This document shows positions 26,885 through 64,000 of a stretch of 64,000 nt of DNA, piece by piece. The position numbers were made by a program, and so were the translations under genes. Origin of the DNA: Centroscyllium fabricii (Eukaryota); the NCBI GenBank assembly GCA_051313645.2, contig JBNRSN020000003.1, positions 439,890,001 to 439,954,000 on the forward strand, read 5' to 3'. The notes beneath the pieces were generated by a model. It made no database searches and was not told where the DNA came from. It was given only the letters and a program-made list of their open reading frames with translations. How positions within the stretch are numbered: the first letter of the stretch is position 1; every line of letters starts with the position of its first letter.

Positions 26885-29225
26885 AGTAGTGCCAGGAGAC
26901 TGGCAGACAGTGAATGTTATTCCTCTATTTAAAAAGGGATACAGAACAAGTCCAGGGAACTATACACTAATTAGCATAACGACAGTGGTAAGAAAGATAA
27001 TGCAATCTTTTCTCAAAGATGTAATAGAAAAACATCTAGAGACCAAAAATGGAATAAAGACTAGTCAGCACGGATTCCAGAAAAGAAAGTCATGCCTGAC
27101 CAACCTTATTGAATTTTTTGAGGGAGTAACAGAAAGAGTAGATAAAGGTAATGCAATAGATGTAACATACATGGATTTTCAAAGGGCCTTTGATAAGGTA
27201 GATAGCAGACTCATGACAAGTCAGAGCATATGGAGTCAAGGGACAAGTAGCAGAATGGATAGCAAGCTGGCTACAATACAGAAAGTAGTGTTTAAAGGTA
27301 CTCAGACTGGCGTGAGGTGGGAGGTGCTGTTCCACAAGGATCGGTGCTGGGACCACTGCTGTTCACCAATTACATAAACGATTTGGACTTGGGAATCGGA
27401 ATCACAATTTCAAAATTTGCAGATGGCACAAAATTGAGGGGTATAGCCTTTCCACCATCTACAACAGTGGTCCCCAACCGCCGGTCCGCGGGACAGTTTT
27501 ACCAGTCCGCGGAAGGTTCTGTGAATCGGCGCATGCGCAGATCAATTGCCGACAGGCCGCGGCAGGGTCTGTGAATCGGCACAGACGGAAGACAGCACCC
27601 CCGCCGGTCAGTCAAAAAAACTCCGCCAGCACTCCCCCCCCGGTCAGTCAAAAAATCTCCGCCAGCACCCCGCTACCCCCGGTCCGCGAAAAAATTGACA
27701 AGCCCAAAATGGGCCGCCGTCGCAAAAAGGTTGGGGACCCCTGATCTACAAGGCACAAGCAAGGAGTGTGATGGAATATTCCCCACTTGCCTGGATGAGT
27801 GCAGCTCCAACAACGCTCGAGAAGCTCAACATCACCCAGGACAAAGCAGGCCGCTTGATTGGCACCCCATTCACCACCTTAAACATTCACTCCTTCCACC
27901 ACCGGCGCACCGTGGCTGCAGTGTGTACCATCTACAAGATGCACTGCAGCAACGCGTCAAGGCTTCTTTGGCAAAACCTCCCATGACCTCTACCAGCTAG
28001 AAGGGCAAGGGAAGCAGGCGCATGGGAACACCACCGCCTCCATGTCACACACCATCCTGACTTGAGAGTATGTCTTGGAAGACAATAAAATTGAATTGAA
28101 TCGAATCACTGTTTCAAAATCCTGGAACTCCTTCCCAAACAGCACTGTGGGAGCACCTTCACCACACGGACTGCAGCAGTTCAAGAAGGCGGCTCACCAC
28201 CACCTTCTCAAGGGCAATTAGGGATGGGCAATAAATGCTGGCCTTGCCAGTGACGCAGAAATCCCATGAACGAATAAAAAAAAGTTAGTACTTTGAAGAC
28301 TGTGACAAAATAAAAGAAGTCATTAATGAACTTGAAGAATGGGTGTGTAAATAGTAAATGAATTTCAATATAGACAAGTGTGATGTGGTACATTTTGGTT
28401 GGAGGAATAAGGAGGCTACATACTCCTTGGAAAATAAGAGTCTAAATGGGGTCGAGGCGCAAAGGGATCGGGGGGGTACAGATTCCCAAATCATTAAAAG
28501 TTGCAATGCAGGTTAACAAGGCCAAAAAATTCAAATAAAGCACCAGAATTCACTAACAGAAGAATAAAATTGAAGAGCAGAGAAGTTATGTTAAACATAT
28601 ACAGGACCCTGGCTAGACCCCACTTATACTGTGCACAATTCTGATCACCATGTCATGAAAAGGATATAGAGGCATTGGTGAAGGTGCAAAATGGATTTCC
28701 AATAATGATACCAGAATTGAGAGGTTATAACTATCAGGGTTGAACAGGCTGAGACTCTTTTCTCTGGAAACTAGTAGGCTAAGGGGCGACATATTAGAGG
28801 TCTTTAAAATTAGGAAGAGGTGCGATAGGGTAGATGTAAAGAGGTTTCCACTTATTGGGGGGTCCAAAACTAGGGGTCCAAAGATGTGCGGGTTAGGTTG
28901 ATTGGCCAGGATAAATTGACCCTTAGTGTTAGGGGGATTGAATATGTGGGGTTACGGGGATAGGGTGGGATATGTGTCAGTGCAGGCTCGAAAGGGATCG
29001 AGGGATATGGGGAGAGGGCAGGGGTGGGGTACTGGGTTTGGATGATCAGCCGTGATCTCATTGAATGGCAGAGCAGGCTCGAAGGGCCGAATGGCCTACT
29101 CCTACTCCTAGTTTCTATGTTTTGGGGTTATAAACACAGTCAGTAAAAAATCCAATAAGGAATTCAGGAAAAATGCCTTTACCCAGGAAGTGGTTAGAAT
29201 GTGGAACTTGCTACCATATGGAGTA
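26885..29225 (+). mobile_element. Degenerate CR1 with nested LINE (about 27445-28285), hAT MITE and truncated V-SINE (about 28877-29121)
   Basis: RT motifs occur in ORFs 26889-27377 and 27317-27574, and the CR1 resumes after 28290. Confidence 0.75.
27465..27743. mobile_element. hAT MITE
   Basis: TIRs CAGTGGTCCCCAACC / GGTTGGGGACCCCTG and 8-bp TSD ATCTACAA. Confidence 0.92.
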
Positions 29226-33611: not shown

Positions 33612-35387
33612 ATAGAAACATAGAAGATAGGAGCAGGAGTCGGTCATTCGGCCCCGTGAGCCTGCTCCGCCATTCAATGCGATCATGGCTGATCATCCAA
33701 GTTCAGTACCCTGTCCATGCCTTCTCCCCATATCCCTGGATCGCTTTAGCCTTAAGAAATATATCCAACTCCTTCTTAAATATATTTAATTAATTGGCCT
33801 ATACGGCCTTCTGTGGTAGAGAATTCTACAGGTTCACCACTCTCTGGGTGAAGAAATTCCTCCTCATCCCTGTCCTAAATGGCTTACACCTTATCCTCAG
33901 ACTGTGACTCCTGGTTCTGGACTCCCCGGCCATCGGGAACATCCTTCCTGCATCTAGTCTGTCTAGTCCTTTTAGAATTTTATAAGTCTCAATGAGATCC
34001 CCTCTCATTCTTCTAAACTTCAGTGAGTACAAGCCCAATCGACCCAATCTCTCCTCATACGTTATTCCTGCCATAGAAACTAGGAGCAGGAGTAGGCCAT
34101 TCGGCCCTTCGAGCCTGCTCCGCCATTCAATGAGATCATGGCTGATCATCCAAACTCAGCACCCCGCCCCCGCCTTGTCCCCATATCCCCTGATCCACAT
34201 CGAGCCTGCATCGACACATATCCCACCCTATCCCCGTAACCCCACCTATTCAATCCCCCTAACACTAAGGGTCAATTTAGCATGGCCAATCAACCTAACC
34301 CGCACATCTTTGGATTGTGGGAGGAAACCGGAGCACCCGGAGGAAACCCACGCAGACACGGGGAGAATGTGCAAACTCCACACAGATAGTACCCGAGGCT
34401 GGATTTGAACCCGGGTCTCCAGTGCTGTGAGACAACAATGCTAACCACTGTGCCACCGTGCCGCCCCAGGTATCAGTCTGGTGAATCTTCGCTGCACTCC
34501 CTCCATGGCAAGAACATCCTTCCTCAGAAAGGCGACCAAAACTGCACACAGTACTCAAGATGTGGTCTCACCAAGGCCCTGTACAACTACAGCAAGACAT
34601 CCTTGTTCCTGTACTCAAACCCTCTCGCTACGAAGGCCAACATACCATTTGCCTTCTTAACCGCCTGCTGCACCTGCATGCTTACCTTCAGCGGCTGGTG
34701 CACAAGGATGCCCACAGGTCTCGTTGCCCTTCCCCTTTTCCCAATCTATTGCCATTCAGATAATAATCTGCCTTCCTGTTTTTGACACCAAAGTGGATAA
34801 CCTCGCATTTATCCATGTTATATTGCCATGCCTCTGTCCAATCACCCAACCTGTCCAAATCATACTGGAGTTTCCTCTGCATCCTCCTCACAGCACACAC
34901 GTCCACCCAGCTTTGTGTCATCTGCAAACTTGGAGATATTACATCTAGTTCCCTCGTCTAGATCATATATATATATTGTGAATAGCTGGGGTCCAAGGAC
35001 CGATCCCTGCGGTACCCCACTAGTCACTGCCTGCCACTCGGAAAAAGATCTGTTTATTCCAACTCTTTGCTTTCTGTCTGCCAACCAGTTCTCTATCCAA
35101 GTCAATACCTTGCCCCCAATCCCATGTGTCTTAGGTTTACATGCTAATCTCGTATGTGGGACCTTATCGAATGCCTTTTGAAAGTCCAAATACACCACAT
35201 CCACTGGTTCTCCCTTATCTATTTTACCAGTTACATCCTCAAAAAATTCCAGTAGATTAGTCAAGCATGATTTACCCTTTGTAAATCCATGATGACTTTG
35301 TCTGATCCGGTCACTGTTTTCCAAGTGCTCTGTTATTACATCTTTTATAATGGACTCTAGCATTTTCCCCACTACCAATGTCAGGCT
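33612..35387 (-). mobile_element. CR1 LINE that is the target of the LTR insertion (resumes at about 46192-46270), with nested V-SINE 34072-34467
   Basis: RT ORF 34860-35378. The CR1 sequence ...TGTCAGGCT|TACCAGTCTGTAATTCCCC is restored when the LTR element is removed. Confidence 0.88.
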
Positions 35388-37077
35388 TGTAAGGAGCGTG
35401 CGCCGTATATTTTATTGTACGACTTGGGGTCCGTTACTGCCTTGCGCTAGCAGTCCGATAGGCCTCGCGCAATAACCTCCTCCCCCGCGAGCGGTTCGAA
35501 TCGCTCACCCTTACGGTTCTAGACGTTGGACTTAGGTGCAGGAGAAGAGAGAGAGACGAGATGGATACCGATTGGACTCAGATTTAGACTCGAATAAAAG
35601 TTTGCAAAGTTGGAAGATTTTATTACACCACAGGATATATTTACAGCAGTTAGGTTGTATTTCATCAGAACGACACAGTATGATACACCAACAATTGTTT
35701 CCCAAACAGATATATATATATATATACATACACAGGTAACTTATAGGATGGGGAACGCACGGCACATCGTAAATCGGGCAATGACTCTATAAATACACCC
35801 CAAATAAACCACCCTTCCCTCTATTGCCTAGCTATGTCCAGGTGTGTAGGATCGAGGCACATGCTCACCACTCGGTAATACTCGGGGTCTGCTACGAAGT
35901 TCCTCGTTTCCTCGGCTGCAGCGTCGGTCGTCACGTGGCTGTGGAAGATTCGGGAGTCCACTTGTTGTCTTCTCCCTTTGGGCGGCGGTCGCTCCTGCTC
36001 GGGCTGGTCCCGGACGGGTTCCTCGAGGCTGCTCTATCTCCTCGCACCAACCGCACCGTCTCCCTGGCTGAACCGGACCCTGGGGTATGCCGATCCTGCC
36101 CTCTCAAGCCGAACTGTAACGGGCTGCTAGCCTACTTGCTTTCCCACTCTTCGAACGCTAGCTTAATCGCCGTGTTCAACAAGATGCTTCACTGATGGGG
36201 CCCAACAACCAACTACCTCACCAGCAATGGTTTTCCGATGCGATACTGCCCTGACCCAACTCGACCGCTCTGCCAGAACCTTCACCCTGCTTGCCCTGCA
36301 CCCAGAAAGCTGAACTGGAGTCTTCGAAACGGAGAGCCCACCCAAAGTTACTGCTAACGCTCAAAAGTTCTTTTCCGAGACCTCACCGCTTCAAGAGGTC
36401 GATTCCACGAGTCAAGAGAGAGAAATCCAAACCCCCCTCCTCCAGGGAGTCCGAGATGAAGAGAGATTTTCAAGAGAGACCTTTCCAAGAGCTAAAGAGC
36501 TAAGCGAGAGAGCGAATTGTAGAAATGTGCTGCCAGTTATACCCCAAATGTTGAATGCCTAATGTCTTTCCCATTAGGGCCGGTATTTGTGTTTGGGAAA
36601 CGGTTATTGCATCCTTTTGTCCAGCCAAGCCTGCTGGTAATAGTTTTGATGGTGGCTCTAACTTCTCCGGTTAGAGTCCCATTGTTTTCAAGGGTGCTAA
36701 TCACTTTATGCTCGAAGGGTATACAATTTCTGTAGCTGGCTAAACAGGCCAGCTGCTTCGTATTTGCAGCTGTTTTGGGTGCTTATTTAACTGGGTGCAT
36801 TTCTTTGTGGGGCTAAGCGGTTTCTGAGGGGCAGGCTACTTATTTACAGGTTTAACAGCGCCTTCATGTCTGGTTTCTTCGCGGGCTTTTCGAATTGAGT
36901 TTTGGTTTCATTTTACACTATGCCATGTGGTCCGGCGGCCATTTTGGAGGCCCCTTTTCTCTGATCAGGCCGCAGCCTGTCCTGTCTGCCATTGTACAAT
37001 AAAAAAACATGTATACTCCATCCCTTCGTTTCTGGTCTTTGTAAATCCGTTTTGACTTGGAATATTGCGACCTTACA
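35388..37077 (-). repeat. 3' LTR (1690 bp)
   Basis: Direct repeat of 44500-46191. By eye it differs by about 4 substitutions and one 2-bp indel at a (TA)n tract. Confidence 0.97.
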
Positions 37078-37090
37078 GTCCCTCCTGTTG
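37078..37090 (-). other. Polypurine tract
   Basis: The minus strand reads AACAGGAGGGAC immediately before the 3' LTR TGT. Confidence 0.65.
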
Positions 37091-37933
37091 ATTAGCATAA
37101 CCCTGCTTAGCGAATCAATTAAGAAAGGTTGAGCAAGATTCCCGATCCTCCACACCTCAACTCTCCTGGTTACCTAAGTTAACTCTTGCCCCATGACACA
37201 TGCGGTTCCCATTCCCTTTGATCAACCTCGCATTGCCTTTACCCTGGGCAACGTATATTTACACAACCACGTCTTACACCTCCTGGTTCCTTCCACGTCT
37301 GCCAGGCCGATGCCTTCGTCTCCACCTGTTTATATCATTTATTAACTTGAAAGAGACATCACACAACCATCCGGAAAATATAAACACACACATCTCCCCT
37401 CATCAATCCCCCCATTTGTCCCAAAGTTTTTACAGTGTTCTGGCGGTCTTCTGCAGCCACCACCATCGGCTCGCTGGGATCTTCCTATCCCTCAACGGAA
37501 GTAAGTCCTTCTACCGATGATAGCGCCGGTCCTGGGTGCGATGGTCTCGATCCGGGGCACAGAAAACCAAGTCTCTCCACAAGCGGATTCCGACGTGCTG
37601 GGATGCTCCATTGGGTCCGTTCCCAGCCGTCCTTACTCCCCGGTGTGGCCCCGACTGGCCAGTCCATCTTTGATGGCCGCAAGCGTCATCAGAATCCCCG
37701 CCTCTCTGGGTTCTGTAATTAAACAAAGGGGTTGCCGGCCTCCCAAGAGCGCCTGGCTGTGGTGAGATGTGCACGCCTCCTGGACAGATCCCATATTACC
37801 TAAACACTCCCCTTCACCTTTATGCTTAACGTCACACTTTTAACAAAATTCAGAAATTAATTCGGGCTACTCCCTTGACACTACCAAACTTATTTCTCAT
37901 TATATACAGTGCCGCCTCTCCCGGGCGGCCTAC

Positions 37934-40900
37934 CTATCCCCTGTCAGGGTCGTAGCGGGCCGCTCCCCGTGGCGGTGCATTGCTGACCCTTCCCTTTGGT
38001 TCCCCGCAGCCTGTCGCTGCTTTTGATTCTCCGCAGCCTGGTGCTGCTTGTCGGGGGTGGATAATTATCCTTTTGCGGGGGCTTTTCCTGTACCTGAGGG
38101 CATATGACGGTTCTGGCCAAGCTTTCCTGGGCGGGGGTACCCTTTCCGATCGACGGAGGGTGCCTTTAGGTACTGCTCCCTGGGCCGACGAACTGAGGAC
38201 CGAGCCAGGTTGTGCTGCAGCCTGTGACTCCCTCACAGCTGCCAGCACCAACCCCTCTCCCTCCAGCTTCGCTTCCCTGGGACCGAGAGCCCCCTGGGCC
38301 GACGACCTGAGGACCGGGCCAGGTCGTGCTACAGCCTGTGACCCCGTCACATCTGTCAGCATCGACGCTCCCTCCTCTCGCCTCGTCGACGAACTGAAGG
38401 CCGGGCCGGATCGTGCTGCAGCCTGTGACTCCTTCACAGCTGCCAGCACCGACCCTCCCTCCTTCAGCTTCGCTTCCCCGGGACTGGGATCTCTTGCGGC
38501 TTCTGACCTCACCTCACCTATCTCCTCAGGTGGTGAGTCTCCGCCCGCTATCCCTACCTCTTCGGCATTCGAGTCGAGAACGGAACCCCCGTCCTCCGAC
38601 CCCTCCTGCTCCCCTGTGATTGACTCTAGCACTGGGTCGCGTAGGTCAATCAGGTCCAACCCTTGGTCGGGTTGGCCAATCGGGTCCAACACTTGGTCGT
38701 GTTGGTCCATCGGATCCAACACTTGGTCGGATTGGTCCGGCTCCTCCCCATCTGAATCCCACACAGCACGAGAGACCCTCCTCTCCTCCATCGGGGCCTC
38801 TCCTTTCACGCAGGCTACTTTACCTGCCTGCGCGACCTGTGGTCCTGCACTTGGCTGGGCGTTCCCACTCACAGGGCTTGCCCCTGTGGTCGACCCCTGC
38901 GTGCCCGACTTATACATTTTACATTGGTTTATATGAAACCACTTTGTGCGTCGGGGCACCTTCACCGCATAAACCATGGGGCTTGCCTTATCTACAATGC
39001 TGTAGGGCCCCATGTACAGTGGCTCTAAACTCCCGACCCGGGCATAGTTCCTCACCATGACCAGGTCTCCCACTTCCCATTCTTGCGTTCTTCGGGGCTC
39101 CAGCAACAGCTTGTTCCCCTGATGCTGTCTGCCCATGTTCCCTGCTGCCTGCTCGTGTACTCGCTTTAGGTGCTCGAACAGATTTTGGGCAAACCTGTCC
39201 TTCTTTACCTCCTCGAGCTGTCCTTCCGTGAGCACCGGAGCTAGTACATGAGTGGGGGTACGCATGGCCCTTCCAGTCATTAGCTCGTGCGGGGAATATC
39301 CCGTACTTTTCGACTGGCTGGCCCTGATCCCCATGAGGATTAAAGGCAGGATCTCCGCCCATTTCTGGGGCGAGCCCATCGCCTCTTTCCTCAACCGTTC
39401 CTTAAGGGTACGGTTCATGCGTTCCACAATTCCTGATGACTGGGGGTTGTGCGCTACGTGCCATTTCCCTTCAATGCCTAAGAGCATGAGGGTGTTCTGC
39501 ATGACCTGGCCGGTGAAGTGACTCCCCTGGTCGGACTCCACAAAACGGGGAAGTCCCCACCGTGAGAACACCTCCCGGACCAAAATCCTGGCAGTACCTA
39601 AAGCCGTAGCCGTCCTACAGGGGAAAGCTTCTACCCATTTGGAGAACACGTCCACCAGGACGAGACAATATTTATAGCCTCCCTGGGCGGTGGGTAGGGG
39701 CCCTATATAGTCGACTTGTATCGACTGCCACGGTCCCTCCACCCTCCTGACGTGCCCCATCTGCGCTTTCCTCCTTTGGGGGTCTGGGTTGTTCGCAGCG
39801 CACACCAGGCAGCTGGCGCAGAACTCGCGGGCATCTTCCCTGACTCCCGGCCACCACCCTGCCTGCTCCACCCGTTGCCACGTAACCTCTGGCCCGGGGT
39901 GCCCTGCTCCTGGACCCTCGTGGGCCAATTGGAGAAATTCCCTCCTGTGCTGCTGCGGCACAACCCACTGTTCCTCCCTGAACAACATTCCTTCCTTAAC
40001 GGAGAGGGTCGCCCTATTGTATGGGCCCTCTACCTGCTTGTCCTCACTAATAGCTTTGAGGACAGCTTTTAAAACGGGATCCTGGTTTTGGACCGCTTTG
40101 AGATCCAAAGGCAGGGGAACCCTGGGGCGGTTCCCCTCCTTATCCCGGATCGCTGCCACAGGTCCGGACCCGTAGGGGTCCCAGAAAGTGCCTTCACGAG
40201 CACCCTCCTTGGCCAGCGCATCCGCCCGCTGATTGCCTCCCCCACGTGGTTCCGTGGAAGAGTGAGCCTTCACCTTGTGGATGAAGATCTCCCCTTCTTC
40301 CCCTACTGCCGCTAGGATCTTCTCCAACAAGGGCTTTACTGTTAATGGCCGCCCGTCCACGGAAGTGTACCCGCGACGTGACCATATGGCCAGATACTCC
40401 GTGCACGAGTTGCACGTAAACATACTATCTGAACAAATTGTGTACGGGGTTGGGAAGGTCTCGGGGTGGGTTACCACGTACGCCACCGCCGACAGCTCGG
40501 CCTGCTGCGCGCTCATGGTGCGGGGAAGCTTAACCGCCAAGGCAATGTCTGCCGTAGGGTCAAAAATCCCGCAGCCCGTGAGTCGTTCGCCAGCCACCAC
40601 CGTGCTGGAACCATCAACATAGATCTCGCGGCCCGTGGGATGTATCCCGGCTCGCAGACCTATGTTCACCTCCCATACCCCCTCCACGGAACACCGATGG
40701 GTCGTTCCGGGGTACATCAAATTTGCTGCGAGCTTAGGCTCGCACAAACCCTCCACTTTTAAATCCATTTGGGACAACAGAAGAGTCCAGCGCGCAATTC
40801 TCGCGCTGCTCACGGTCCCATCCTTTATCCTCCCATCCAGGAGCATCCTGGTGGGCGTGTGGTGGGTGAGGAGAGTAATGGGAGAGGTTCCCGTGAAGAT

Positions 40901-42574
40901 TAATGATCTCTTCACGGCCCAATGCGTGGCTAAAAGATGCCGTTCGCAGTTGGAGAACCCCCTCTCTACCTCCGTGAGTACCCTTGAGGAATACACCACC
41001 GGTCGCAGCTTGCCGTGCCGCTCTTGGAGCAACACCGCGCTCAAGCTGTCCTCGCCGGCTGCTACCTCCAGGGAAAACTCCTTCCCCTCCTCTATGGCCC
41101 CCAGGGCTGGCGCGGTTTGCAAGTCCCTCTTCAACTTTTCAAACGCCGCCTGGCAGCCCTCATCCCATGACCACCCAACTCCCTTATGTAAGAGTCGGAG
41201 CAGCGGAGCTGCTGTGGCTGCATAGTCCTCTATGAAGTCTCTGCAATACCCGGTCAATTCCAAAAAGGACCTCACACCCTTTACGGTGGTCGGGATCGGT
41301 AGCTCCTGTACCGACTCCCTCCTGGCATTATCTATGGCCCTTTCCCCCGCGCGGATGGTCAGACCCAGAAACTTTACTTCTGTCTGGCCAATCCGTGCCT
41401 TCTTCGGGTTTATTTTAAAACCCTTCCTAGCCAGTAATTCCAGCAGCTCGCCTAGCAATGGCAAGTGCTCATCCCTCGTGTCCGTGAACAGGAGTAAGTC
41501 GTCCACGTACTGCACTATTTGATTGGGCTGACTAAACTCCTTTAAACTCCCTGCCATACACTGGTGGAAAATACTGGGGCTGTTGTGGAAGCCTTGCGGC
41601 AAACAATTCCACGTGTACTGCTGCCCTTTAAACGTAAAGGCAAACTTGTACTGATCCTCCCTCCGCAGCGGGATGGACCAAAACCCGTTGGAGATATCCA
41701 ACACCGTAAACACCGTGGCGGAAGCGGGAATACTCCCGATCAGGTCGGCAACTGCTGCCACCGTGGGCGCGCAGGCGGGGATGTTACTGTTGAGGACTCG
41801 ATAATCCACCGTGGCTCTCCATGAGTTGTCCGGCTTCTTTACTGGCCACAACGGAGAGTTCACATGGGTGGCTATCGGCCTCAACACGCCCTGCCGCACC
41901 AGTGAAGACATCGCTGTCTCCAGATCGGACTCCGCTTCCTTAGGGAAGTTATACTGTTTCTGGGGTCGGGACATGGGATCCCCCTGTACGCCATCCTCAA
42001 ACCCTAAGACCCTCCCGCAATCGTGCTTGTGGGTCGCAAAGGCGTTTATATTCCACGTTACGGCCGCCTGCATGTCGGCCGGAACCCCCTTGGACAAACT
42101 ATCGAGGTCGTAACCTCCGGACGGCTTCATGGTGCATAGGGTCCCCTTCTCTTCTTCCTCCCCTATGACCACAACTTCACCTCTTCCACTTTCGGCTGCC
42201 CATAAACAGTGGTTCCTTAGGTCGATCATGATCCCGTGTGCTCCCAGAAAATCTGCTCCTACTATACCTCTGCCACCTCCTTCTTCCCATTTCAGTAGGA
42301 TGCACTCCCAAGTGGTGTGGAGCGCTCCTAACTGAATGGAGAGTGGCCTAGAGCGCGCGCCCCCCTGTTCCTTGCCCGCAAACCCTGCTAATGCAAAAGG
42401 GACTCCGGTGGACATTGGGGAATTAAACGGCTTCTCTGTATGGATCACGGTGCATGAGGCCCCCGTATCCAACAGATAATTCCCCTCCTGTCTCTCCACC
42501 TCCATTTCCACCAGAGGTCTCCTCCATGCATCATAACGGAGCGGACACAGGTAAATGGGCAGCGCGGGTCTTAG
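37934..42574 (-). CDS. pol: Pol: protease, RT, tether (degenerate RNase H), RNase H, integrase and long low-complexity tail; in frame with gag
   Basis: YLLDTGAS; SPLWPVKKPDNSWR; LPQGFHNSP; YVDD (41498-41509); tether; IYVDGSS..SAQQAEL..SDS..VKAH..GNQRADALAK; HHCC; VDYIGPLP..SDQG..VERMN; GPY. The frame is open from the gag stop. Confidence 0.95.
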   Translation of the reverse strand, partial: LRPALPIYLCPLRYDAWRRPLVEMEVERQEGNYLLDTGASCTVIHTEKPFNSPMSTGVPFALAGFAGKEQGGARSRPLSIQLGALHTTWECILLKWEEGGGRGIVGADFLGAHGIMIDLRNHCLWAAESGRGEVVVIGEEEEKGTLCTMKPSGGYDLDSLSKGVPADMQAAVTWNINAFATHKHDCGRVLGFEDGVQGDPMSRPQKQYNFPKEAESDLETAMSSLVRQGVLRPIATHVNSPLWPVKKPDNSWRATVDYRVLNSNIPACAPTVAAVADLIGSIPASATVFTVLDISNGFWSIPLRREDQYKFAFTFKGQQYTWNCLPQGFHNSPSIFHQCMAGSLKEFSQPNQIVQYVDDLLLFTDTRDEHLPLLGELLELLARKGFKINPKKARIGQTEVKFLGLTIRAGERAIDNARRESVQELPIPTTVKGVRSFLELTGYCRDFIEDYAATAAPLLRLLHKGVGWSWDEGCQAAFEKLKRDLQTAPALGAIEEGKEFSLEVAAGEDSLSAVLLQERHGKLRPVVYSSRVLTEVERGFSNCERHLLATHWAVKRSLIFTGTSPITLLTHHTPTRMLLDGRIKDGTVSSARIARWTLLLSQMDLKVEGLCEPKLAANLMYPGTTHRCSVEGVWEVNIGLRAGIHPTGREIYVDGSSTVVAGERLTGCGIFDPTADIALAVKLPRTMSAQQAELSAVAYVVTHPETFPTPYTICSDSMFTCNSCTEYLAIWSRRGYTSVDGRPLTVKPLLEKILAAVGEEGEIFIHKVKAHSSTEPRGGGNQRADALAKEGAREGTFWDPYGSGPVAAIRDKEGNRPRVPLPLDLKAVQNQDPVLKAVLKAISEDKQVEGPYNRATLSVKEGMLFREEQWVVPQQHRREFLQLAHEGPGAGHPGPEVTWQRVEQAGWWPGVREDAREFCASCLVCAANNPDPQRRKAQMGHVRRVEGPWQSIQVDYIGPLPTAQGGYKYCLVLVDVFSKWVEAFPCRTATALGTARILVREVFSRWGLPRFVESDQGSHFTGQVMQNTLMLLGIEGKWHVAHNPQSSGIVERMNRTLKERLRKEAMGSPQKWAEILPLILMGIRASQSKSTGYSPHELMTGRAMRTPTHVLAPVLTEGQLEEVKKDRFAQNLFEHLKRVHEQAAGNMGRQHQGNKLLLEPRRTQEWEVGDLVMVRNYARVGSLEPLYMGPYSIVDKASPMVYAVKVPRRTKWFHINQCKMYKSGTQGSTTGASPVSGNAQPSAGPQVAQAGKVACVKGEAPMEERRVSRAVWDSDGEEPDQSDQVLDPMDQHDQVLDPIGQPDQGLDLIDLRDPVLESITGEQEGSEDGGSVLDSNAEEVGIAGGDSPPEEIGEVRSEAARDPSPGEAKLKEGGSVLAAVKESQAAARSGPAFSSSTRREEGASMLTDVTGSQAVARPGPVLRSSAQGALGPREAKLEGEGLVLAAVRESQAAAQPGSVLSSSAQGAVPKGTLRRSERVPPPRKAWPEPSYALRYRKSPRKRIIIHPRQAAPGCGESKAATGCGEPKGRVSNAPPRGAARYDPDRG

Positions 42575-44497
42575 TCATTGGGTTTCCACGTGAGGGGCTG
42601 CGGTGCCTGCGGAACCGGTGGCCACCGCTGCCTTCCCCTGGGAAGCCATATACAACTTCATGGCCCCCAGCGTGGACTCAATCGTCTCGGGACTTAAAGT
42701 CGCCCCGGCACCTCCTGTGGGAGCGGGTGCTCGGGTTGGGGCTACCTTCCCCTGGGAAGTCATATAAAACTTCATGGCTTCCAGCATGGACTCAATTGTT
42801 TCGGGACTTAGAGTGGCGCCGGCACCTCCTGTGGGAGTGGGTGCTCGGGCTGGGGCTGCGGGAGCTCTTTCCTTGACCTCCCTCCACGGGGCTCTACAGT
42901 CTCTGCGCCAGTGGCCTGCCTTCCCGCATCTATGACATGTAGACTGCCCCGGGTTGCCCCCCTCCTGATACCACTCTCTCTGCGCTGGGGCGTCTGCGTT
43001 AGTCGCATACACCTTCCCCTTATCGCAGTGCATCACCGAACTCCTCGTGTTTTTGTACCCAACCGTGAGTCGGTTGAGGACCGTCTCCTCTGTGGTTTGA
43101 GCATCGGTGGGGTCAAACCACACCTTAGCCTGCTCTCCAACGGCGGGTAGGCTGTTGGCAACGATACACCGGAGCCACTGGGCTCTCCCGGCGTCGCGCA
43201 AAACAGCCCATGCAGGTACATCTGGGCAGCTGCGCTGATACACAGGCCACAGCCTCCCGGCGAAAACCCGTGGGGGTTCTCCCTCCATCTGCACGGTCCT
43301 ACCCAGCCTTACAAACGGACCTTCATCGTCCATTCCCAGCACTTCTAAGACCTCATCCCGTAGGTCGTCATAGCCCTTATTCCCCCTCTTGCTCTCGTCG
43401 GAGAGACACTGAAGGATAGAGCTATCTAAAGAGAAAAGCAACATCCTGGCTTGCTCTCCTTCGTCACAGCCGTTTACCGCTGCTGCCTGTTCGACCTCCC
43501 TAAAATGCAGGGACGGATCGCCTGCTGCGGACAGCTTCCTAAAATGCCCTATCATGCTCCTTATTTGTTGCGAGCTATGGGGCACTATGACCTCATTCAA
43601 GATGGGCCCGGGATCCCCAGCCGCAGTGTCGGGACCCCGCCTCGTTTCTCGAACCGGACACATGGGTGCCGGGTCTGGATCCCCCATTTTGGGAACCTTC
43701 GCCGCCACCTCCTCTCTGTCCCCTTTCTCCCATGCTTGCGTATAGTGGGGTGATCGCGCGGGGAGCGCGGGGGCTGGTGCCTCCGGCGCCCTCCTCCTTA
43801 GCTTTGGCTTCGGGGGTTCCTTAACCACCTTTACCTCACCCACCGATGGGTCGATGAGGCACACCAGACCATTTGACCTGTTCAGGGCCTCCCTGAGGTC
43901 CTGAATCTCCTTTAAACAAGCGCCATGATCGGCGTCCTCATATTTGGTCTCAAGGGACATTTTGTACGCTGCCCTCATCCCCAGTAAATCCTCCTCCTGT
44001 GCCTTTAATTGGCCACTTAGGCGGACGCACCTTTCCCTGAGCTTCCCTTCACTTGACATGGCCTCTACTACTTGTCTTTCTAGGAGCTCGACCCTGGCCT
44101 CATGGCGGTTGGTCTTCACCTGGCGCTCATTATTCAGAGCCTCTAGCGCGGTGATTAACCGCTGCCCCCCTGAGACCTTTTCCTCCACTTCTAGGACTAA
44201 CCCCTTGATCTGCGCGGTCTGCGCCGCAATCACCTGGTCCGAAAGCTGGACCTGCTTTTTATAGCACATTAACCATACTGCTTTTTCTACTGCTTTTTTA
44301 TGCCCCTTGCTACCCGTCCAACGGATAGCTGCATCCAGTGGGCGTTTGTCTGCCAACAGGTCCCCAATCCACTGCTTTGTTAAATTCACTTTGCTGAACA
44401 CATAACCAGCAATCCTTTCCTCCATTACGCTTCTTTTATTCAAGGCTGAGTCCAATATATCTCTCTCCTGCTGCCAACGTCCTGCCGCGGTCGCCAT
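42575..44497 (-). CDS. gag: Gag (640 aa): N-terminal coiled-coil-like region, capsid-like region, one CCHC zinc knuckle
   Basis: CHRCGKAGHWRRDC knuckle and position between the PBS and pol. Confidence 0.92.
   Translation of the reverse strand: MATAAGRWQQERDILDSALNKRSVMEERIAGYVFSKVNLTKQWIGDLLADKRPLDAAIRWTGSKGHKKAVEKAVWLMCYKKQVQLSDQVIAAQTAQIKGLVLEVEEKVSGGQRLITALEALNNERQVKTNRHEARVELLERQVVEAMSSEGKLRERCVRLSGQLKAQEEDLLGMRAAYKMSLETKYEDADHGACLKEIQDLREALNRSNGLVCLIDPSVGEVKVVKEPPKPKLRRRAPEAPAPALPARSPHYTQAWEKGDREEVAAKVPKMGDPDPAPMCPVRETRRGPDTAAGDPGPILNEVIVPHSSQQIRSMIGHFRKLSAAGDPSLHFREVEQAAAVNGCDEGEQARMLLFSLDSSILQCLSDESKRGNKGYDDLRDEVLEVLGMDDEGPFVRLGRTVQMEGEPPRVFAGRLWPVYQRSCPDVPAWAVLRDAGRAQWLRCIVANSLPAVGEQAKVWFDPTDAQTTEETVLNRLTVGYKNTRSSVMHCDKGKVYATNADAPAQREWYQEGGNPGQSTCHRCGKAGHWRRDCRAPWREVKERAPAAPARAPTPTGGAGATLSPETIESMLEAMKFYMTSQGKVAPTRAPAPTGGAGATLSPETIESTLGAMKLYMASQGKAAVATGSAGTAAPHVETQ
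44479..44496 (-). other. Primer-binding site for tRNA-Arg(TCG)
   Basis: TGGCGACCGCGGCAGGAC lies 3 nt from the 5' LTR and is complementary to the vertebrate tRNA-Arg-TCG 3' end ...GTCCTGCCGCGGTCG-CCA (tRNA sequence recalled, not searched). Confidence 0.85.
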
Positions 44498-44499
44498 TC

Positions 44500-46191
44500 T
44501 GTAAGGAGCGTGCGCCGTATATTTTATTGTACGACTTGGGGTCCGTTACTGCCTTGCGCTAGCAGTCCGCTAGGCCTCGTGCAATAACCTCCTCCCCCGC
44601 GAGCGGTTCGAATCGCTCACCCTTACGGTTCTAGACGTTGGACTTAGGTGCAGGAGAAGAGAGAGAGACGAGATGGATACCGATTGGACTCAGATTTAGA
44701 CTCGAATAAAAGTTTGCAAAGTTGGAAGATTTTATTACACCACAGGATATATTTACAGCAGTTAGGTTGTATTTCATCAGAACGACACAGTATGATACAC
44801 CAACAATTGTTTCCCAAACAGATATATATATATATATACACATACACAGGTAACTTATAGGATGGGGAACGCACGGCACATCGTAAATCGGGCAATGACT
44901 CTATAAATACACCCCAAATAAACCACCCTTCCCTCTATTGCCTAGCTATGTCCAGGTGTGTAGGATCGAGGCACATGCTCACCACTCGGTAATACTCGGG
45001 GTCTGCTACGAAGTTCCTCATTTCCTCGGCTGCAGCGTCGGTCGTCACGTGGCTGTGGAAGATTCGGGAGTCCACTTGTTGTCTTCTCCCTTTGGGCGGC
45101 GGTCGCTCCTGCTCGGGCTGGTCCCGGACGGGTTCCTCGAGGCTGCTCTATCTCCTCGCACCAACCGCACCGTCTCCCTGGCTGAACCGGACCCTGGGGT
45201 ATGCCGATCCTGCCCTCTCAAGCCGAACTGTAACGGGCTGCTAGCCTACTTGCTTTCCCACTCTTCGAACGCTAGCTTAATCGCCGTGTTCAACAAGATG
45301 CTTCACTGATGGGGCCCAACAACCAACTACCTCACCAGCAATGGTTTTCCGATGCGATACTGCCCTGACCCAACTCGACCGCTCTGCCAGAACCTTCACC
45401 CTGCTTGCCCTGCACCCAGAAAGCTGAACTGGAGTCTTCGAAACGGAGAGCCCACCCAAAGTTACTGCTAACGCTCAAAAGTTCTTTTCCGAGACCTCAC
45501 CGCTTCAAGAGGTCGATTCCACGAGTCAAGAGAGAGAAATCCAAACCCCCCTCCTCCAGGGAGTCCGAGATGAAGAGAGATTTTCAAGAGAGACCTTTCC
45601 AAGAGCTAAAGAGCTAAGCGAGAGAGCGAATTGTAGAAATGTGCTGCCAGTTATACCCCAAATGTTGAATGCCTAATGTCTTTCCCATTAGGGCCGGTAT
45701 TTGTGTTTGGGAAACGGTTATTGCATCCTTTTGTCCAGCCAAGCCTGCTGGTAATAGTTTTGATGGTGGCTCTAACTTCTCCGGTTAGAGTCCCATTGTT
45801 TTCAAGGGTGCTAATCACTTTATGCTCGAAGGGTATACAATTTCTGTAGCTGGCTAAACAGGCCAGCTGCTTCGTATTTGCAGCTGTTTTGGGTGCTTAT
45901 TTAACTGGGTGCATTTCTTTGTGGGGCTAAGCGGTTTCTGAGGGGCAGGCTACTTATTTACAGGTTTAACAGCGCCTTCATGTCTGGTTTCTTCGCGGGC
46001 TTTTCGAATTGAGTTTTGGTTTCATTTTACACTATGCCATGTGGTCCGGTGGCCATTTTGGAGGCCCCTTTTCTCTGATCAGGCCGCAGCCTGTCCTGTC
46101 TGCCATTGTACAATAAAAAAACATGTATACTCCATCCCTTCGTTTCTGGTCTTTGTAAATCCGTTTTGACTTGGAATATTGCGACCTTACA
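44500..46191 (-). repeat. 5' LTR (1692 bp)
   Basis: Direct repeat of 35388-37077. Candidate TATAA at 45651-45655 (minus) and AATAAA about 25 nt before the LTR end. Confidence 0.97.
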
Positions 46192-46269
46192 GGCTTACCA
46201 GTCTGTAATTCCCCATTTTCTCTCGACCACCTTTTTTGAATAGTGGGGTTACATTAGCTACCCTCCAAT

Positions 46270-51190: not shown

Positions 51191-54100
51191 TCAGCACTGT
51201 GTTATCAGTCTTTGTGGGGGTTTAACAGTCCGAGTAGATCTGCGAGGCAGTGTCGGTTCTGGCGAAGAATCGGGAGCAGTCGTAATCGGAAAAGACGCTG
51301 ACGGGGCTCCCGACGTGAACAGGGACTCCACCGGTGGAAGAGGTACCTCAGACACAGGAAGATCTGGTGGAGGTGTAGCAGCCGCCGGAAGAGTAGGCTG
51401 AGCAACATGATGAGCTCCGTCGTGCATTGTGAGTGACGAGGGCCCCGATGTAGTGTGCGCAGGTGAATGAAAAGATGGCCCCTGTTGTGAAAATGTGACC
51501 TGGGAGGGCAAGGGCTCCGCCAACGACTCTAAGTGAACGTCTCCAGCGGGCGCAAGGTTTCTAATCGAGACGGTATCCTCACGCCCATCTGGGTACTCCA
51601 CGTAGGCATACTGAGGGTTGGCATGCAGCAGGCGCACACGTTCAACAAGAGGGTCCGTCTTGTGTCCACGGACATGCCTTCTAAGCAGAACCGGCCCCGG
51701 GTTGGTGAGCCACGTCGGCAGAGACGTCCCCGAAGTCGATTTCCTAGGGAAAGAAGAGTTTCTCGTGAGGCGTGCAACCGGTGGCTGTACACAAGAGGGA
51801 ACGGGTAGTGTGGAGCACATCCTGGAGGACCTCCTGCCAGTGGGAGGTTGGAAGGCCTTTGTATCGAAGGGCCAGGGTGATGGCCTTCCAGATGGTCCCA
51901 TTATAACGTTCTACCTGACCGTTCCCCCGGGGGTTGTAACTGGTCGTTCTGCTCGAGGCAACCCCTCTCACGAGCAGAAAATGACGCAATTCGTCACTCA
52001 TAAATGAGGACCCCCCGGTCGCTGTGTATGAAGCCGGGAAGGCCGAAAATGGGGAATAGCGTGATAAAATGCTTTATCACTGTTGCACTCGTCATATCTG
52101 GGCATGGAAATGCAAAAGGGAAACGGGAGAACTCGTCGACCACAGTGAGAATGTACGAGTTACGGTTGGTAGAGGGGAGGGAACCTTTGAAGTCCACACT
52201 CAGGCGCTCGAATGGTCGGGTGGCCTTGATGAGGTGCGCCCTGTCAGGCCTGTAAAACTGGGGCTTGCACTCAGCACAGACAGGGCATTCCTGCGTCATC
52301 GCCTTGATCTCCGCAATGGAATAAGGGAGATTGCGTGATTTGACGAAGTGAGCGAGCCTGGTGACCCCCGGGTGGCAGAGATTAGCGTGGAGGGTGTTCA
52401 GACTACCCGACTGGGCGCTGGCACACGTTCCTCGGGACAGGGCGTCCGGGGGATCGTTAAGCTTCCCTGGCCGGTACAGAATGTTGTACTCAAAAGCGGA
52501 GAGTTCGATCCGCCACCTGAGGATCTTGTCATTCTTGATTTTACCCCTCTGTTTATTGTGGAACATAAACGCTACTGACTGCTGGTCAGTAAGAAGGGTA
52601 AATCGTTTACCGGCCAAATAGTGGCGCCAGTGGCGCACTGCTTCCACGATTGCTTGGGCCTCCTTTTCCACTGAAGAGTGGCGGACTTCAGGGCCCTGTA
52701 GGGTACGGGAGAAGAAAGCGATGGGCCTGCCTACCTAGTTGAGGGTGGCGGCCAGGGATAAGTCTGAGGCATCGCTTTCGACCTGGAAGGGGAGAGACTC
52801 ATCAATGGCGTGCATGGTCGCCTTGATGACGTCTTGCTTGATATGCAAAAAGGCAATTTGGGCCTCTAACGGGAGCGGGAAGGAGGTAGCCCTGAGGAGA
52901 GGCCAGGCCTTATCAGCATAATGGGGCACCCATTGTGCATAGTAAGAGAAAAACCCCAGGCATCTCCTCAAAGATTTGGGGGAGTGCGGTAGGAGCAGCT
53001 CCTGAAGGGGGCGCATACGTTCGGGATCGGGGCCGAGGACCCCGTTCTCAATTACGTAGCCAAGAATAGCCAACCGGTTAGTGTTGAAAACGCACTTATC
53101 CTCATTGTAAGTGAGGTTCAGACGCTGGGCCGTACGGAGAAACCTGTCCAAATTGGAATCATGATCTTGCTGGTCATGGCCGCAGATCGTGACATTGTCC
53201 AAATACGGGAATGTGGCCTGCAAATGATACTAGTCAACCATTCGGTCCATCTCCCGTTGGAAGACCGAAACTCCGTTGGTAACCCCAAAGGGGACCCGGA
53301 GGAAGTGAAAAAGGCGCCCATTTGCCTCGAAGGCAGTGTATTTACGGTCCTCAGCTCTGATGGGGAGCTGGTGATAGGCCGACTTAAGGTCGATGGTGGA
53401 GAAGACCTTATACTGGGCAATCTGATTGACCATGTCATTTATCCTAGGAGATAAGCGTCGAGCCCAGTGTAGCGGTTTATGGTCTGACTATAGTCGATGG
53501 TCTGACTATAGTCAATGACCATGCGCTGTTTGTCGCCAGACTTAACCACTACCACCTGGGCCCGCCACGGGCTGTTACTGGCCTCGATGATGCCCTCCCG
53601 TAACAACCGAGCACCCTCTGCCTTGATAAAGGTGCGGTCCCCCGCGCTGTATCGCCGACTCTTGGTTGCAATGGGCTTGCAGTCAGGGTCAAGGTTGGCG
53701 AACAGCGAGGGGGTGTCTATCTTCAAGGTAGACAGACCGCAAGAGGAGTCTGGTTGTGAGGCAGGGCAGTCGCGGCTGCTGACCGTGAGAGGAGGCAGGG
53801 GACCGCCGTACGCCATCGTCACGCTCTGCAGATGGTACTGGAAGTCCAGGCCAAGCAACACAGGGGCGCAGAGCTGTGGGAGGACGTACAGTGGAAAGTT
53901 GCGGTATGTCGTCCCCTTCACAGTAATAGTGACTGTACAGCAGCCGATGACGTCCACAGTCTGGGACTCGGAGGCGAAGGAGATTTTATGATGTGTGGGC
54001 CTAACCCTGAGGGAATAACGGTGCACCGTATCAGGGTGTATGAAGCTCTCCATACTCCCAGTGTCGAACAGACATCGGGTGAGGTGCCCCTCTACCCGGA

Positions 54101-54311
54101 TGGGCATCATTGATAACGAGAGACTGGTTGAGGGCCGTAGAGGCAAGTGTGGTGTGCGCGCTGGGGCCCTTGTGCCATGCAGGGTCCGCGGGTGATGGCG
54201 GCGCCCGTGATTCACACGCGGCGGGCCGCGGTGGCGTTTCGGACCGTTGGGAGGACCGCTGGGTGAGTCACCGAGAAAGCCATTGGGAGGACCGAAGGGC
54301 TCGTGGCGCAC
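51191..54311 (-). pseudogene. pol: Gypsy pol (protease, RT, RNase H, integrase) with stops and frameshifts
   Basis: LFDTGS; IDLKSAYHQ; VPFGVTN; YLDN; SDAS..EKEAQA..LTDQ; HHCC; SVDFKG..HSDRG..VERYN. Confidence 0.9.
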
Positions 54312-55676
54312 AAGCGCCAGAATGCTGAATTGCCCTGGAGTTGCCTGTTGCTGCTGCCAGGATCATTGTAGTTTCTTCTAAGCTGCCTGTTGCTGCTGCA
54401 GCCTGTGTTGGTAAGTTTGCCCTACACAAAGATGGTGGCATCACGTGATGGGGCGGGGCCGCTGCCGCCGGGATGCGCGTTGTCCTATACAAAGATGGCG
54501 GCATCACGTGATGGGGCAGGGCCGCTTCTGCCGCGATGCGAGTTGTCCTATACAAAGATGGCGGCGTCACGTGATGGGGCGGGTCGCTGCTGCCGGGATG
54601 CAGGAAGATGGCGGCGTTACGTGATGGGGCGGGGCCTCTACTGCCGGGATGCGAGTTGCCCGCATCAAAGATGGCGGCGCCCTGTGCTGGGACGCTGCCG
54701 CTGCTGCTAGGAGGCCCGACGAAGAAGAAGATGCCCGCACCCCCAAAGATGGCGGAGCACGGGAAACGACGTTGGCAGGCCGCATCCGAGGCAAGGTAGG
54801 TAGCAATCGTTCTGGGGGCTGCTGTTGGGGGGCGCCAGGTACCTGAGGCCACTCTGTGGCGTGGACATCGCAGGCTGCTGCCGTTTTCCTTGCTGATTCC
54901 GGGGCCGATCGGCAGACCTTCGCAAAATGGCCCTTCTTGCCACATTTGGAGCAGGAAGACGCCTTTGCTGGACAGAAGCTTCGTGGATGGTGTTTCTGGC
55001 CACAAAAAAAGCATTTCAGAGGCGCTGGCTGTCCAGATGGCGCCATGGCCGCCACGGTCGCCGTCATCGAACACGAGTCCCAAGGCCCAGGGGAAACCAC
55101 ATGGGAGCCGTGCCCCGTGTACGAATCCAGGCTCCGGAGGGCCCCATCCACCACGTTGGAAAGCTTCACCGCCTCATTCAGGGACAAATTATCCTGCTCG
55201 AGCAGGCGGGTGCGAGCTGGGGCCGATCTGATGCCTGCCACGTAGGCATTATGGACGAGGAGGTCCATGTGCTCCTGGGCGTTAACAGGAGCGCATCCGC
55301 AGCGCAGAATGAGAGCTTGAAGAGCCTCCAGGTACTCCTCATTCGACTCACCATGCTGTTGCCTCCGCGTGGCGAGTAGATGGCGAGCATAGACGGCTTT
55401 GACTGGCTGGAGGAATTGAGCCTTCAGTAGCTCCATCGCTGCATCGTATTCCGTGGCGCTCTTGATGATGGAATACACCCTGCCACTCACGCAGGAGACC
55501 AGGACTCGTCTCTTGTGCGCGTCGCTGACTCCGGCCACAACAAGGAACGATTCAAAACAGCTCAGCCAGTGTTCGAAATCATTTGACGCGTTCGGTGCCT
55601 GGGGGTTGAGGTCGAGAGTTTTGGGTTTTAGGTCTGTCTTCCAAATCTCAGAAGTTGCTGGCTGTTGCTGGTTCAT
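54268..55676 (-). pseudogene. gag: Gypsy gag with tandem zinc knuckles
   Basis: FEHWLSCFESF; CFFCGQKHHPRSFC and CSKCGKKGHFAKVC form a double knuckle, as in the Mag clade. Frameshifted in the repeat region. Confidence 0.85.
54421..54680. repeat. ~63-bp GC-rich minisatellite (about 4 copies) between the gag knuckles and protease
   Basis: Unit CCTATACAAAGATGGCGGCATCACGTGATGGGGCGGGGCCGCTGCCGCCGGGATGCGAGTTGT. Confidence 0.9.
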
Positions 55677-55733
55677 TTTAAAAATTCTTGTGAATAAAAT
55701 TGTGAAGCCTCAAATCAAAGTCGACAGCTTGTT

Positions 55734-62240: not shown

Positions 62241-62479
62241 CATAGCTAAGTCAACACAGACCAGGGATTAAACTTTGGACCTTCCTGGTAAGTGTGGTTT
62301 GGATAAATCTGCAGAGCCACAGGGTGAGTCTAAGTATGCCATGGATAACCACGTTATGTTTAACGTATAATTTTTAAGTTCGATCCTGATGATGAAACTT
62401 CCTGCTTAAGTAATATTAAATACCCAAGCAATTTAAATGCAGGAAACTTTCACTACTAAATTCTACATTCTTAGGGATT

Positions 62480-63180
62480 TTTAAAAATTCATTCACGGGA
62501 TGTGGATGTCGCTGACAAGGCCAGCATTTATTGCCCATCCCTAGTCGCCCTTGAGAAGGTGGTGGTGAGCTGCCTTCTTGAACCGCTGCAGTCCGTGTGG
62601 TGAAGGTGCCCCCACAGCGCTGTTAGGGAGGGTATTCCAGGATTATGACCCAGCGACGATGAAGGATCGGCCGACATATTTCCAAGTCAGGATGGTGTGT
62701 GACTTGGAGGGGAACTTGGAGGTGGTGGTGTTTCCATGCGCCTGCTGCCCTTGTCCTTCTAGGTGGAAGAGGTTGCCGGTTTGGAAGGTGCTGTCGGAGA
62801 AGCCTTGGCGAGTTGCTGCAATGCATCTTGTAGATGGTACACACAGCAGCTGCGGTGTGCCAGCGATGAAGGACTGAATATTTAAGGTGTTGGATGGGGT
62901 GCCAATCAAGCGGGCTGCTTTGTCTTGGATGGTGTTGAGCTTCTTGAGTGTTGTTGGAGCTGCACTCATCCAGGCAAGTGGAGAGTATTCCCTCACACTC
63001 CTGACTTGTGCCTTGTAGATGGTGGAAAGGCTTTGGGGAATCAGGAGGCGAGACACTTGCCGCAGAATTCCCAGCCTCTGGCCTGCTCTTGTAACCACAA
63101 TATTTTTTGTGGCTGGTCCAGTTAAATTTCTGGTCAATGGTGACCCCCAGGATGTTGATGGTGGGAGACTCGGCAATCAT
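62480..63180 (-). mobile_element. CR1/L2-superfamily LINE 3' fragment
   Basis: YKAQVRSVREYSPLAW motif; homologous to 13790-14470. Confidence 0.85.
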
Positions 63181-64000
63181 ATGAAATTTTTGTCTTTGCT
63201 AATTTCAGCAAAAAATAATAGGAGAGTAAAAGGCAATGGCATAGCACTTTATGTTCACTACTACTTTTTCACACAAATTAGCAAAGGCAGGAATTTCAGC
63301 CTCTTAATGGACTAACAATGTTAAATAAATTACATGCATTACTGGCCCAAGTTTTCTGAGCTGTATAAATTTCTGCCACCTTATATAACAGGCCTTTTAG
63401 TCAGCAACAGTGATATATCTCCTTTAAAAACACACTGGCTTATTTCTGCAATTGCGCGTAGCTGGTTAAGCTTAAAAACACACATTGGTGCAAAAGAACT
63501 ACCCGCTGATATTGCTGGTTGCCACGGAAACGGGCACCATATGGCCATAGCCATTTTCAGAGGTTGCCAGAGGTAGCGGAAACAGTGAAGTGAAAAGAGA
63601 AGCATTAACGAATAATGGCACAGAGGAAATGGCACAGAAAGTTATGTACACAACACTGCACCGGAAATTATGTTAACATCAGCCCACCTCCCCGCATAGT
63701 CACAGATGCCAAACAATATAGCATCACAACCAAGTCCAGTCCTATTTGATAATCCGCACCAATCCTGGAAGCACTGGTTTGTTCTCAATGAAGAAGTCTG
63801 AGTAAGCTCACATCGCTCTGGGCCTTACAGTCAATCCCAATTGAACTGATGACAATTCTTTTCCCAGAATGCTTTTGTATTAGTAAAATTTTTAAAAAAC
63901 CAACTTGCATTTATATGCATTTACACCATACACCAGGTACATGGTACATACTCATGTAACTCGACCAATTTGTCTACCTCATACGTTGCAGGAAAGGATG

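Follow-up and report, generated by a model that had tools for sequence, protein, structure and literature searches.

Anatomy of the provirus

The stretch analysed here (the window) comprises 64,000 nucleotides of the shark Centroscyllium fabricii (contig JBNRSN020000003.1, positions 439,890,001 to 439,954,000 of the forward strand) and is part of a 7.2-Gb assembly (GCA_051313645.2). On its minus strand, at 35388–46191, lies a 10.8 kb provirus of an endogenous retrovirus (ERV); all features given below are on that strand unless stated otherwise. The element's 5' long terminal repeat (LTR; 1692 nt, 44500–46191) and the 3' LTR (1690 nt, 35388–37077) both have the ends TGTAAG...CTTACA, and four substitutions and a single 2-nt indel set them apart; their identity, put at about 99.7% by eye in the original prediction, measures 99.8%, with a Kimura two-parameter distance of 0.24%. 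The 4 bp target-site duplication (TSD) noted at the outset is GGCT on the plus strand (35384–35387 and 46192–46195), and the reading frame of a long interspersed nuclear element (LINE) reverse transcriptase is split cleanly at the duplicated bases. A likely poly(A) signal, AATAAA, is placed some 237 nt before the LTR ends (35619–35624, with its 5' LTR counterpart at 44731–44736), from which the length of U5 is put at about 215 nt; the signal is kept in all 43 of the 3' LTRs compared and occurs at 233 nt in the LTR of the sister family described below, whereas another AATAAA close to the LTR end is present in only 20 of the 43.

The gag gene (640 aa, 42575–44497) begins with an ATG 3 nt past the LTR, and the primer-binding site (PBS; 44479–44496) falls within its codons 1–7. 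The PBS is complementary to a tRNA-Arg(TCG) gene of the genome at that gene's 3' end, and its exact 18-mer is found in 34 of the 49 family copies that were read, a set made up of 36 among the first 40 junction matches on contig C1 and a further 13 variant copies. Gag lacks a glycine at position 2, has a coiled-coil-like N-terminal region and carries a single CCHC knuckle at aa 521–534; an AlphaFold model from the single sequence (predicted local distance difference test score, pLDDT, 44) was used for its long helices only. The only Gag homologue found is a skate protein, 59% identical and likewise beginning MAT, and it points to a shark or ray as the host, in line with the original prediction. 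The gag ATG overlaps the PBS in both Centroscyllium families and, it seems, in the skate protein too.

Both gag and pol are uninterrupted, as first proposed, and are separated by a single TGA followed by CTA (42572–42577), a predicted readthrough site at which pol (1546 codons) continues in the gag frame. The junction reads CAATGACTAAGA in 36 of 36 copies, with TGA-CTA invariant, and UGA-CUA is classed among the type II readthrough contexts (PMC13517186). Pol contains an aspartic protease (LLDTGA, 42242–42526, from Pfam), a reverse transcriptase (RT; LDISNGFW, LPQGFHNSP and QYVDD, 41165–41962, from Pfam and trees), a tether that has an RNase H fold but lacks the catalytic acids (40769–41083), a second, complete RNase H (40199–40627) and an integrase (IN; 38912–39961) with an HHCC motif, a D-D-E core and an SH3-like end, of which Pfam recovers the zinc finger and core. 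The order of tether and complete RNase H was part of the original prediction and is borne out by Pfam (an RNase-H-like domain at aa 498–602, E 1e-16; RNase H at aa 650–792, E 1e-18) and by an AlphaFold model of the two together (pLDDT 87, 38-row alignment), in which the tether recovers an RNase H-type fold and two RNase-H-type sheets are formed; the best structural matches of that model are the foamy-virus and murine leukaemia virus (MLV) RTs. Downstream are a low-complexity Pol tail of 316 aa with internal repeats and relaxed selection (37937–38884), a decayed stub of env that holds no long frame (37178–37930) and a polypurine tract that is common to the sister family (37078–37089). The 856 nt that separate the pol stop from the 3' LTR contain no env open reading frame (ORF).

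Placement among the retroviruses

Tree rows were taken from the genome of snakehead retrovirus (SnRV; 10,688 nt, PMC12193657), loki-type proteins, foamy and gamma genomes and Ovex1-like proteins, and were labelled by motifs from the supplementary alignments of PMC7947760 and PMC9040795 and, for Ovex1, from PMC2717909, the labels 'eps' and 'GYP' being motif-based guesses; four betaretrovirus rows that scored low were left out of the RT tree. In the RT tree (37 rows) the lokiretroviruses form a clade (support 100/99) without the Centroscyllium element, which falls among the canonical retroviruses (99/98), and in the RT plus tether tree (32 rows) the corresponding values are 100/100 and 100/99. 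Within the canonical retroviruses it stands in a basal grade with SnRV and Ovex1-like, frog, Xenopus and coelacanth elements. By sequence, MLV, XMRV-type and foamy RTs all outscore Ty3 against it. The initial view that the element resembles retroviruses more than ordinary Gypsy elements stands; Ty3/Gypsy membership was rejected on the dual RNase H and on an RT inside Retroviridae. In Spumaretrovirinae, pol lies in a separate frame and there is no CCHC motif. Membership of that subfamily was likewise rejected, with the RT outside the foamy clade, pol in the gag frame and a CCHC motif present.

The suggestion that the element may belong to a loki-like lineage is not supported. Were it a chondrichthyan lokiretrovirus, or a sister of lokiretroviruses or Odin, that had lost env, the dual RNase H would be expected, its tether and IN would be closer to those of lokiretroviruses than to those of SnRV, and the sister-family Env, discussed below, would be homologous to lokiretrovirus Env, all of which is seen; moreover, RT alone leaves a clade of query and lokiretroviruses unrejected in the approximately unbiased (AU) test (p=0.174). 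That joint clade is, however, rejected on RT plus tether (AU p=0.0035), and the dual RNase H is common to all retroviruses and so not diagnostic. In the IN tree, built without a CGIN1 row, the query falls together with loki, Ovex1-like and frog rows into a single group (87/93) of uncertain internal order; this IN type is also found in frog, coelacanth and Ovex1-like elements, and an F-type Env, too, appears to be carried by SnRV. In the supplement rows examined, loki and Odin RTs have signatures such as S-[RG/H]-W-P and P-F-G-Y-x-N-S in common, unlike the RT signatures found here, which match those of SnRV (PTVA, LDISNGFWSI, LPQGFHxSP, QYVDD and KINPKK). A lokiretroviral origin is therefore very improbable, and membership was rejected on the RT position, the RT signatures and the lack of an F-like env ORF; membership of Odin was rejected on RT signatures compared by eye and on the env stub. 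By its RT the element is to be regarded as a canonical retrovirus outside the lokiretroviruses, probably of the SnRV/Ovex1-like (clade Huo) grade and probably near SnRV.

Several features of SnRV-like (clade Huo) elements, a group known from all vertebrate groups, recur here (PMC6001957, PMC4977317, PMC12193657). Besides the RT motifs, SnRV shares a single frame for gag and pol that is interrupted by a stop (here a predicted readthrough site), a non-myristoylated, coiled-coil Gag start and one CCHC motif, both described as SnRV-like features (PMC2717909), and the tether plus RNase H; the two Gag proteins show weak pairwise similarity (E 0.001–0.002). The PBS is likewise of the tRNA-Arg type in both. 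For SnRV we take the primer to be tRNA-Arg. There are also clear differences: the stop context is UGA-CUA here and UGA-CAA in the sister family but UAG-GGC in SnRV, the LTRs are 1.6–1.9 kb rather than 518 nt, the gag ATG falls within the PBS, which no leader follows, env and accessory ORFs are lacking, and RT plus tether is only moderately similar, with no supported clade. The best named database matches are frog, Xenopus and coelacanth Pol proteins annotated as 'NYNRIN-like' or 'Gypsy integrase-like' (44–45% over RT–RNase H); these and bird Ovex1 share the basal grade and the IN type, albeit with no supported sister relation, and Ovex1 is a single domesticated locus (PMC2717909), unlike the high-copy family described here. 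A search for NYNRIN orthologues returned none, and passages of PMC9447858 offered nothing on a NYNRIN link.

Among cartilaginous fish, SnRV-like ERVs have been described from the elephant shark (PMC4422223). The original prediction named nesting within an ERV family already known from elasmobranchs as evidence against it, and the present placement comes near to that case. The elephant shark lineage, CmiERV-I, is SnRV-related like our element but, compared by description only, comprises one complete copy with LTRs 3.3% apart, whereas the Centroscyllium family has thousands of env-less copies with LTRs 0–1% apart. That screen required env downstream, and screens of this kind would miss an env-less family. 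Lokiretroviruses were recorded in none of six chondrichthyan genomes in Fig. S1 of PMC7947760.

Loss of env and the envelope of a sister family

A search of the same genome with the nearest outside protein identified an env-bearing sister family (for example at L143/L144, L153 and L154), so that the proposal to look for env-bearing relatives was productive. Its RT plus tether is 90% identical to that of the query (joint clade support 100), and the two families have the same polypurine tract, LTR ends and TSD length. The sister Pol ORF is 1442 aa, with TGA-CAA at the gag/pol junction, and an env ORF of 841 codons follows, with a furin-type RQKR site at aa 382 and a C-terminal transmembrane segment at about aa 785–810. 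All five of the sister copies read have the env ORF, either complete or fragmented, and 110 of 110 scored env matches in the genome are some 99% identical, the frame being open in many of them. The PBS differs between the families, altering Gag residues 4–6, although both versions match genomic tRNA-Arg(TCG) genes; a third PBS variant was seen in one sister copy. The sister Gag is 73–75% identical to the skate protein, which points either to slow evolution or to a transfer from one elasmobranch lineage to another.

In the query family the region between pol and the polypurine tract is 828–887 nt in all 28 copies in which it could be measured (of 36; eight had no anchor), and none of the 28 contains env, the longest frame being 117 aa; three long LTR-to-LTR spacings checked for env proved to hold other insertions or a tandem copy only. 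This region is nonetheless collinear with the first 870 nt past sister pol (score 242, against a maximum of 187 in 200 shuffles). A third related element bridges the two, being 72% identical to the query 3' region over 510 columns and translating to env aa 77–224 (E 2e-18). Given the stub and the env-bearing sister family, the query family is best read as having lost most of env secondarily, the 3' region being the decayed remnant of about the first 270 codons of a sister-type ORF. The description of the element as env-less is thus right in that no working env ORF remains, but the 856-nt region is not empty; of the two alternatives first offered, that it lacked or had lost env, loss is supported and an element that never had env is not.

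The same evidence bears on the idea that the element is an intermediate between retrotransposons and retroviruses. A primitively env-less element of this kind, like Odin, to whose sister env was added later, would fit the missing env ORF and the basal position, but the env stub lies exactly where the sister env starts and related SnRV-grade elements (SnRV and L177) carry env, and we consider it extremely unlikely. Odin is env-less as the query is (PMC9040795), but in the query the loss is secondary. With both the sister and the stub at hand, the direction of change can be read.

The sister Env matches Pfam Fusion_gly weakly (E 0.048) and falls with F-type clusters in the ESM Atlas (0.94–0.96, under the tool's recognition mark). 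Its transmembrane half is 24% identical, over 277 columns and with matching cysteines, to two lokiretrovirus Env proteins from metagenome contigs; full Smith–Waterman comparison against window shuffles gave Gumbel p values of 2.5e-8 and 3.7e-6, although neither BLASTP nor a two-sequence hidden Markov model matched sister and loki Env. We also saw near-complete lokiretroviruses on metagenome contigs (L167, L168), and the env piece of an SnRV-grade metagenome element (L177) weakly matches sister Env (p 2.5e-4). SnRV Env (7601–9250 of the SnRV genome) likewise falls with F-type clusters in the ESM Atlas (0.94–0.95, a low recognition value), although its pairwise similarity to the sister Env is not significant (p 0.02); a similarity of sister Env to MLV Env (p 1.6e-3) lies in a proline-rich stretch. 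Searches of the shark genome with Pfam Fusion_gly and SnRV Env were blank, which is uninformative as an F-type env is present.

From these comparisons we regard the sister Env as F-type and homologous to lokiretrovirus Env. As this Env accompanies a canonical RT, an F-type Env would be no hallmark of lokiretroviruses, although a text of 2026 still treats it as a loki trait. Lokiretroviruses share with our element the dual RNase H and a similar IN and tether, and with its sister a homologous Env, and differ in RT clade (PMC7947760). The finding bears directly on the origin of lokiretrovirus Env, for which that paper reported no overall similarity to retroviral Env and left four scenarios open. 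F-type Env is either ancestral or was swapped between loki and canonical lineages. Foamy Env is structurally F-like (PMC11468914), and SnRV appears to share an F-type Env with the sister family, not with the query. A joint reading, to which we give somewhat less than even odds, is that the ancestor common to all retroviruses had as its envelope the F-type Env found in lokiretroviruses, the shark lineage, SnRV and foamy viruses, and that this genome holds a before-and-after pair: a retrovirus with F-type Env and an env-less descendant, nearly 1% of the assembly, turned active germ-line retrotransposon.

Expansion of the family and its mode of spread

The env-less family is large. Searching with an 801-nt RT probe yielded 1,292 candidates, of which all 40 scored matched at 99–100%, and exact patterns in the assembly numbered 4,965 LTR/PBS junctions and 16,821 LTR ends (controls 0). 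The junction count, at least 4,965, is a floor, since PBS variants escape it, although it would be inflated if both haplotypes were present in the assembly. We estimate roughly that the family makes up 0.6–0.9% of the assembly; the ERV content of the elephant shark is about 0.007% (PMC4977317). The sister family has 269 exact LTR/PBS junctions.

The family is also young, in agreement with the original prediction. Among 17 of 20 LTR pairs (three were dropped because a boundary was not found) divergence is 0–1.0%, with a median of 0.34% and one pair identical, and the TSD is perfect in 15 of these 17 copies. The two rates given in PMC4422223 would date the window copy to 0.5 or 5 million years ago, and a copy of median divergence to 0.8 or 8. 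LTR divergence says nothing firm on present-day mobility, insertional polymorphism among individuals being the criterion for a currently invading ERV (PMC10435555). The element is also covered by contigs from four runs of three organisms, material that bears neither on transcription nor on empty sites.

The ratio of nonsynonymous to synonymous change (dN/dS), from simple counting against the window copy with no transition correction, is 0.03–0.18 in gag, protease, RT, tether, RNase H and IN for variants found in at least two copies, and 0.65 in the Pol tail; singleton variants give 0.35–0.66 in gag and the enzymes. This pattern indicates purifying selection on gag and the pol enzymes. Of the 49 copies read, 25 are full-length, nine of these with both frames open, and 24 carry recurrent in-frame deletions that keep gag (11 without IN, three without RT–RNase H and 10 without both). 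In nine of the 10 double deletions both Gag and the fused frame are open, against the nine in 25 full-length copies with both frames open.

The LTRs of the copies, at 1632–1917 nt, are often only 83–92% identical to those of the window element, and the coding regions 94–98%; this excess of LTR over coding divergence suggests many source lineages with a fast-changing U3. Intermediate subfamilies 85–93% identical to the window element were also seen (L115, L117, L118, L122, L123 and L151), as were head-to-tail tandem proviruses with a common LTR on contig C1, near 5.33 Mb and at 34.91–34.93 Mb.

We conclude, with a probability of roughly 80%, that the provirus belongs to a large, young family of canonical ERVs, likely of the SnRV/Ovex1-like grade, that has lost most of env and was likely amplified by retrotransposition in the germ line. 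Transcription would start from the 5' LTR, Gag would be translated from the ATG overlapping the tRNA-Arg PBS, and a minority of ribosomes would pass UGA-CUA to give Gag-Pol. Reverse transcription would be primed by tRNA-Arg, with the second RNase H cutting and the tether playing a structural part, and integrase would insert the product with a 4 bp duplication. Intracellular retrotransposition in germ-line cells would thus amplify the env-less family, and the Gag-keeping derivatives without RT and/or IN would probably be copied in trans by full-length members.

Besides the RT-only AU test and the scores of the query tether and IN, which are higher with lokiretroviruses than with SnRV (for IN 202–215 and 127 bits), several points weigh against this conclusion. 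In the trees, which lack rows for Odin, ERV-L and lenti-, alpha- and betaretroviruses, SnRV does not stand closest to the query, and a single clade of query, SnRV, Ovex1-like and frog elements is neither recovered nor rejected (AU p=0.235). No stable RNA structure was found 3' of the gag stop (z about 0 to -1.4). The sister LTR pairs are 99.3–99.4% identical, as young as the query family, so that sister Env could have helped, and the roughly 18-fold ratio of env-less to sister copies is a rough one, as the junction patterns are 33 and 23 nt.

The last two points concern an account with the same family and the same env loss in which spread was by reinfection with the sister Env supplied in trans. 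In its favour, the sister is coeval and has many open and nearly identical env genes; there is also some constraint on sister env (dN/dS 0.3 for shared variants, from only 16 variants), and at the N-terminus the two Gag proteins are alike, with no obvious retargeting change. However, the env-less family far outnumbers its would-be helper and encodes in cis, under selection, all the functions it needs, and we think this route improbable. Amplification by germ-line retrotransposition, the reading preferred here, has parallels in the env-less superspreader ERVs of mammals (IAP, MusD and ERV-L). These too combine env loss, much higher copy number and non-autonomous derivatives, but they belong to another retroviral clade and host class, and the likeness of mechanism is by analogy. 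Env loss followed by a burst in copy number is known mainly from mammals; the retroviruses concerned here belong to a deep-branching group, and their host is a cartilaginous fish. The SnRV-like grade itself is known; what is new is the env-less, high-copy burst beside an env-bearing sister. We found no description of the family, or of F-like Env in SnRV-like ERVs, in the literature searched, which did not cover Repbase or Dfam, and the supplements of PMC6001957 and PMC10435555 may list it.

Elsewhere in the window, the minus strand carries at 53439–55709 a second LTR retroelement, which is broken; it encodes a PNMA-type Gag, a CCHC motif and an aspartic protease and is likely of the Gypsy type. 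Copies of a LINE-like repeat lie at 13793–15138, 27744–28283, 55741–57409 and 62478–63181, two of them 97% identical, together with many further LINE RT and short interspersed nuclear element (SINE)-like fragments, and a tandem array of a 22-nt repeat occupies 7073–7780. In the wider assembly, contig C811 carries a dense tandem cluster of tRNA genes at 22.4–25.4 Mb, with a spacing of about 1.9 kb.

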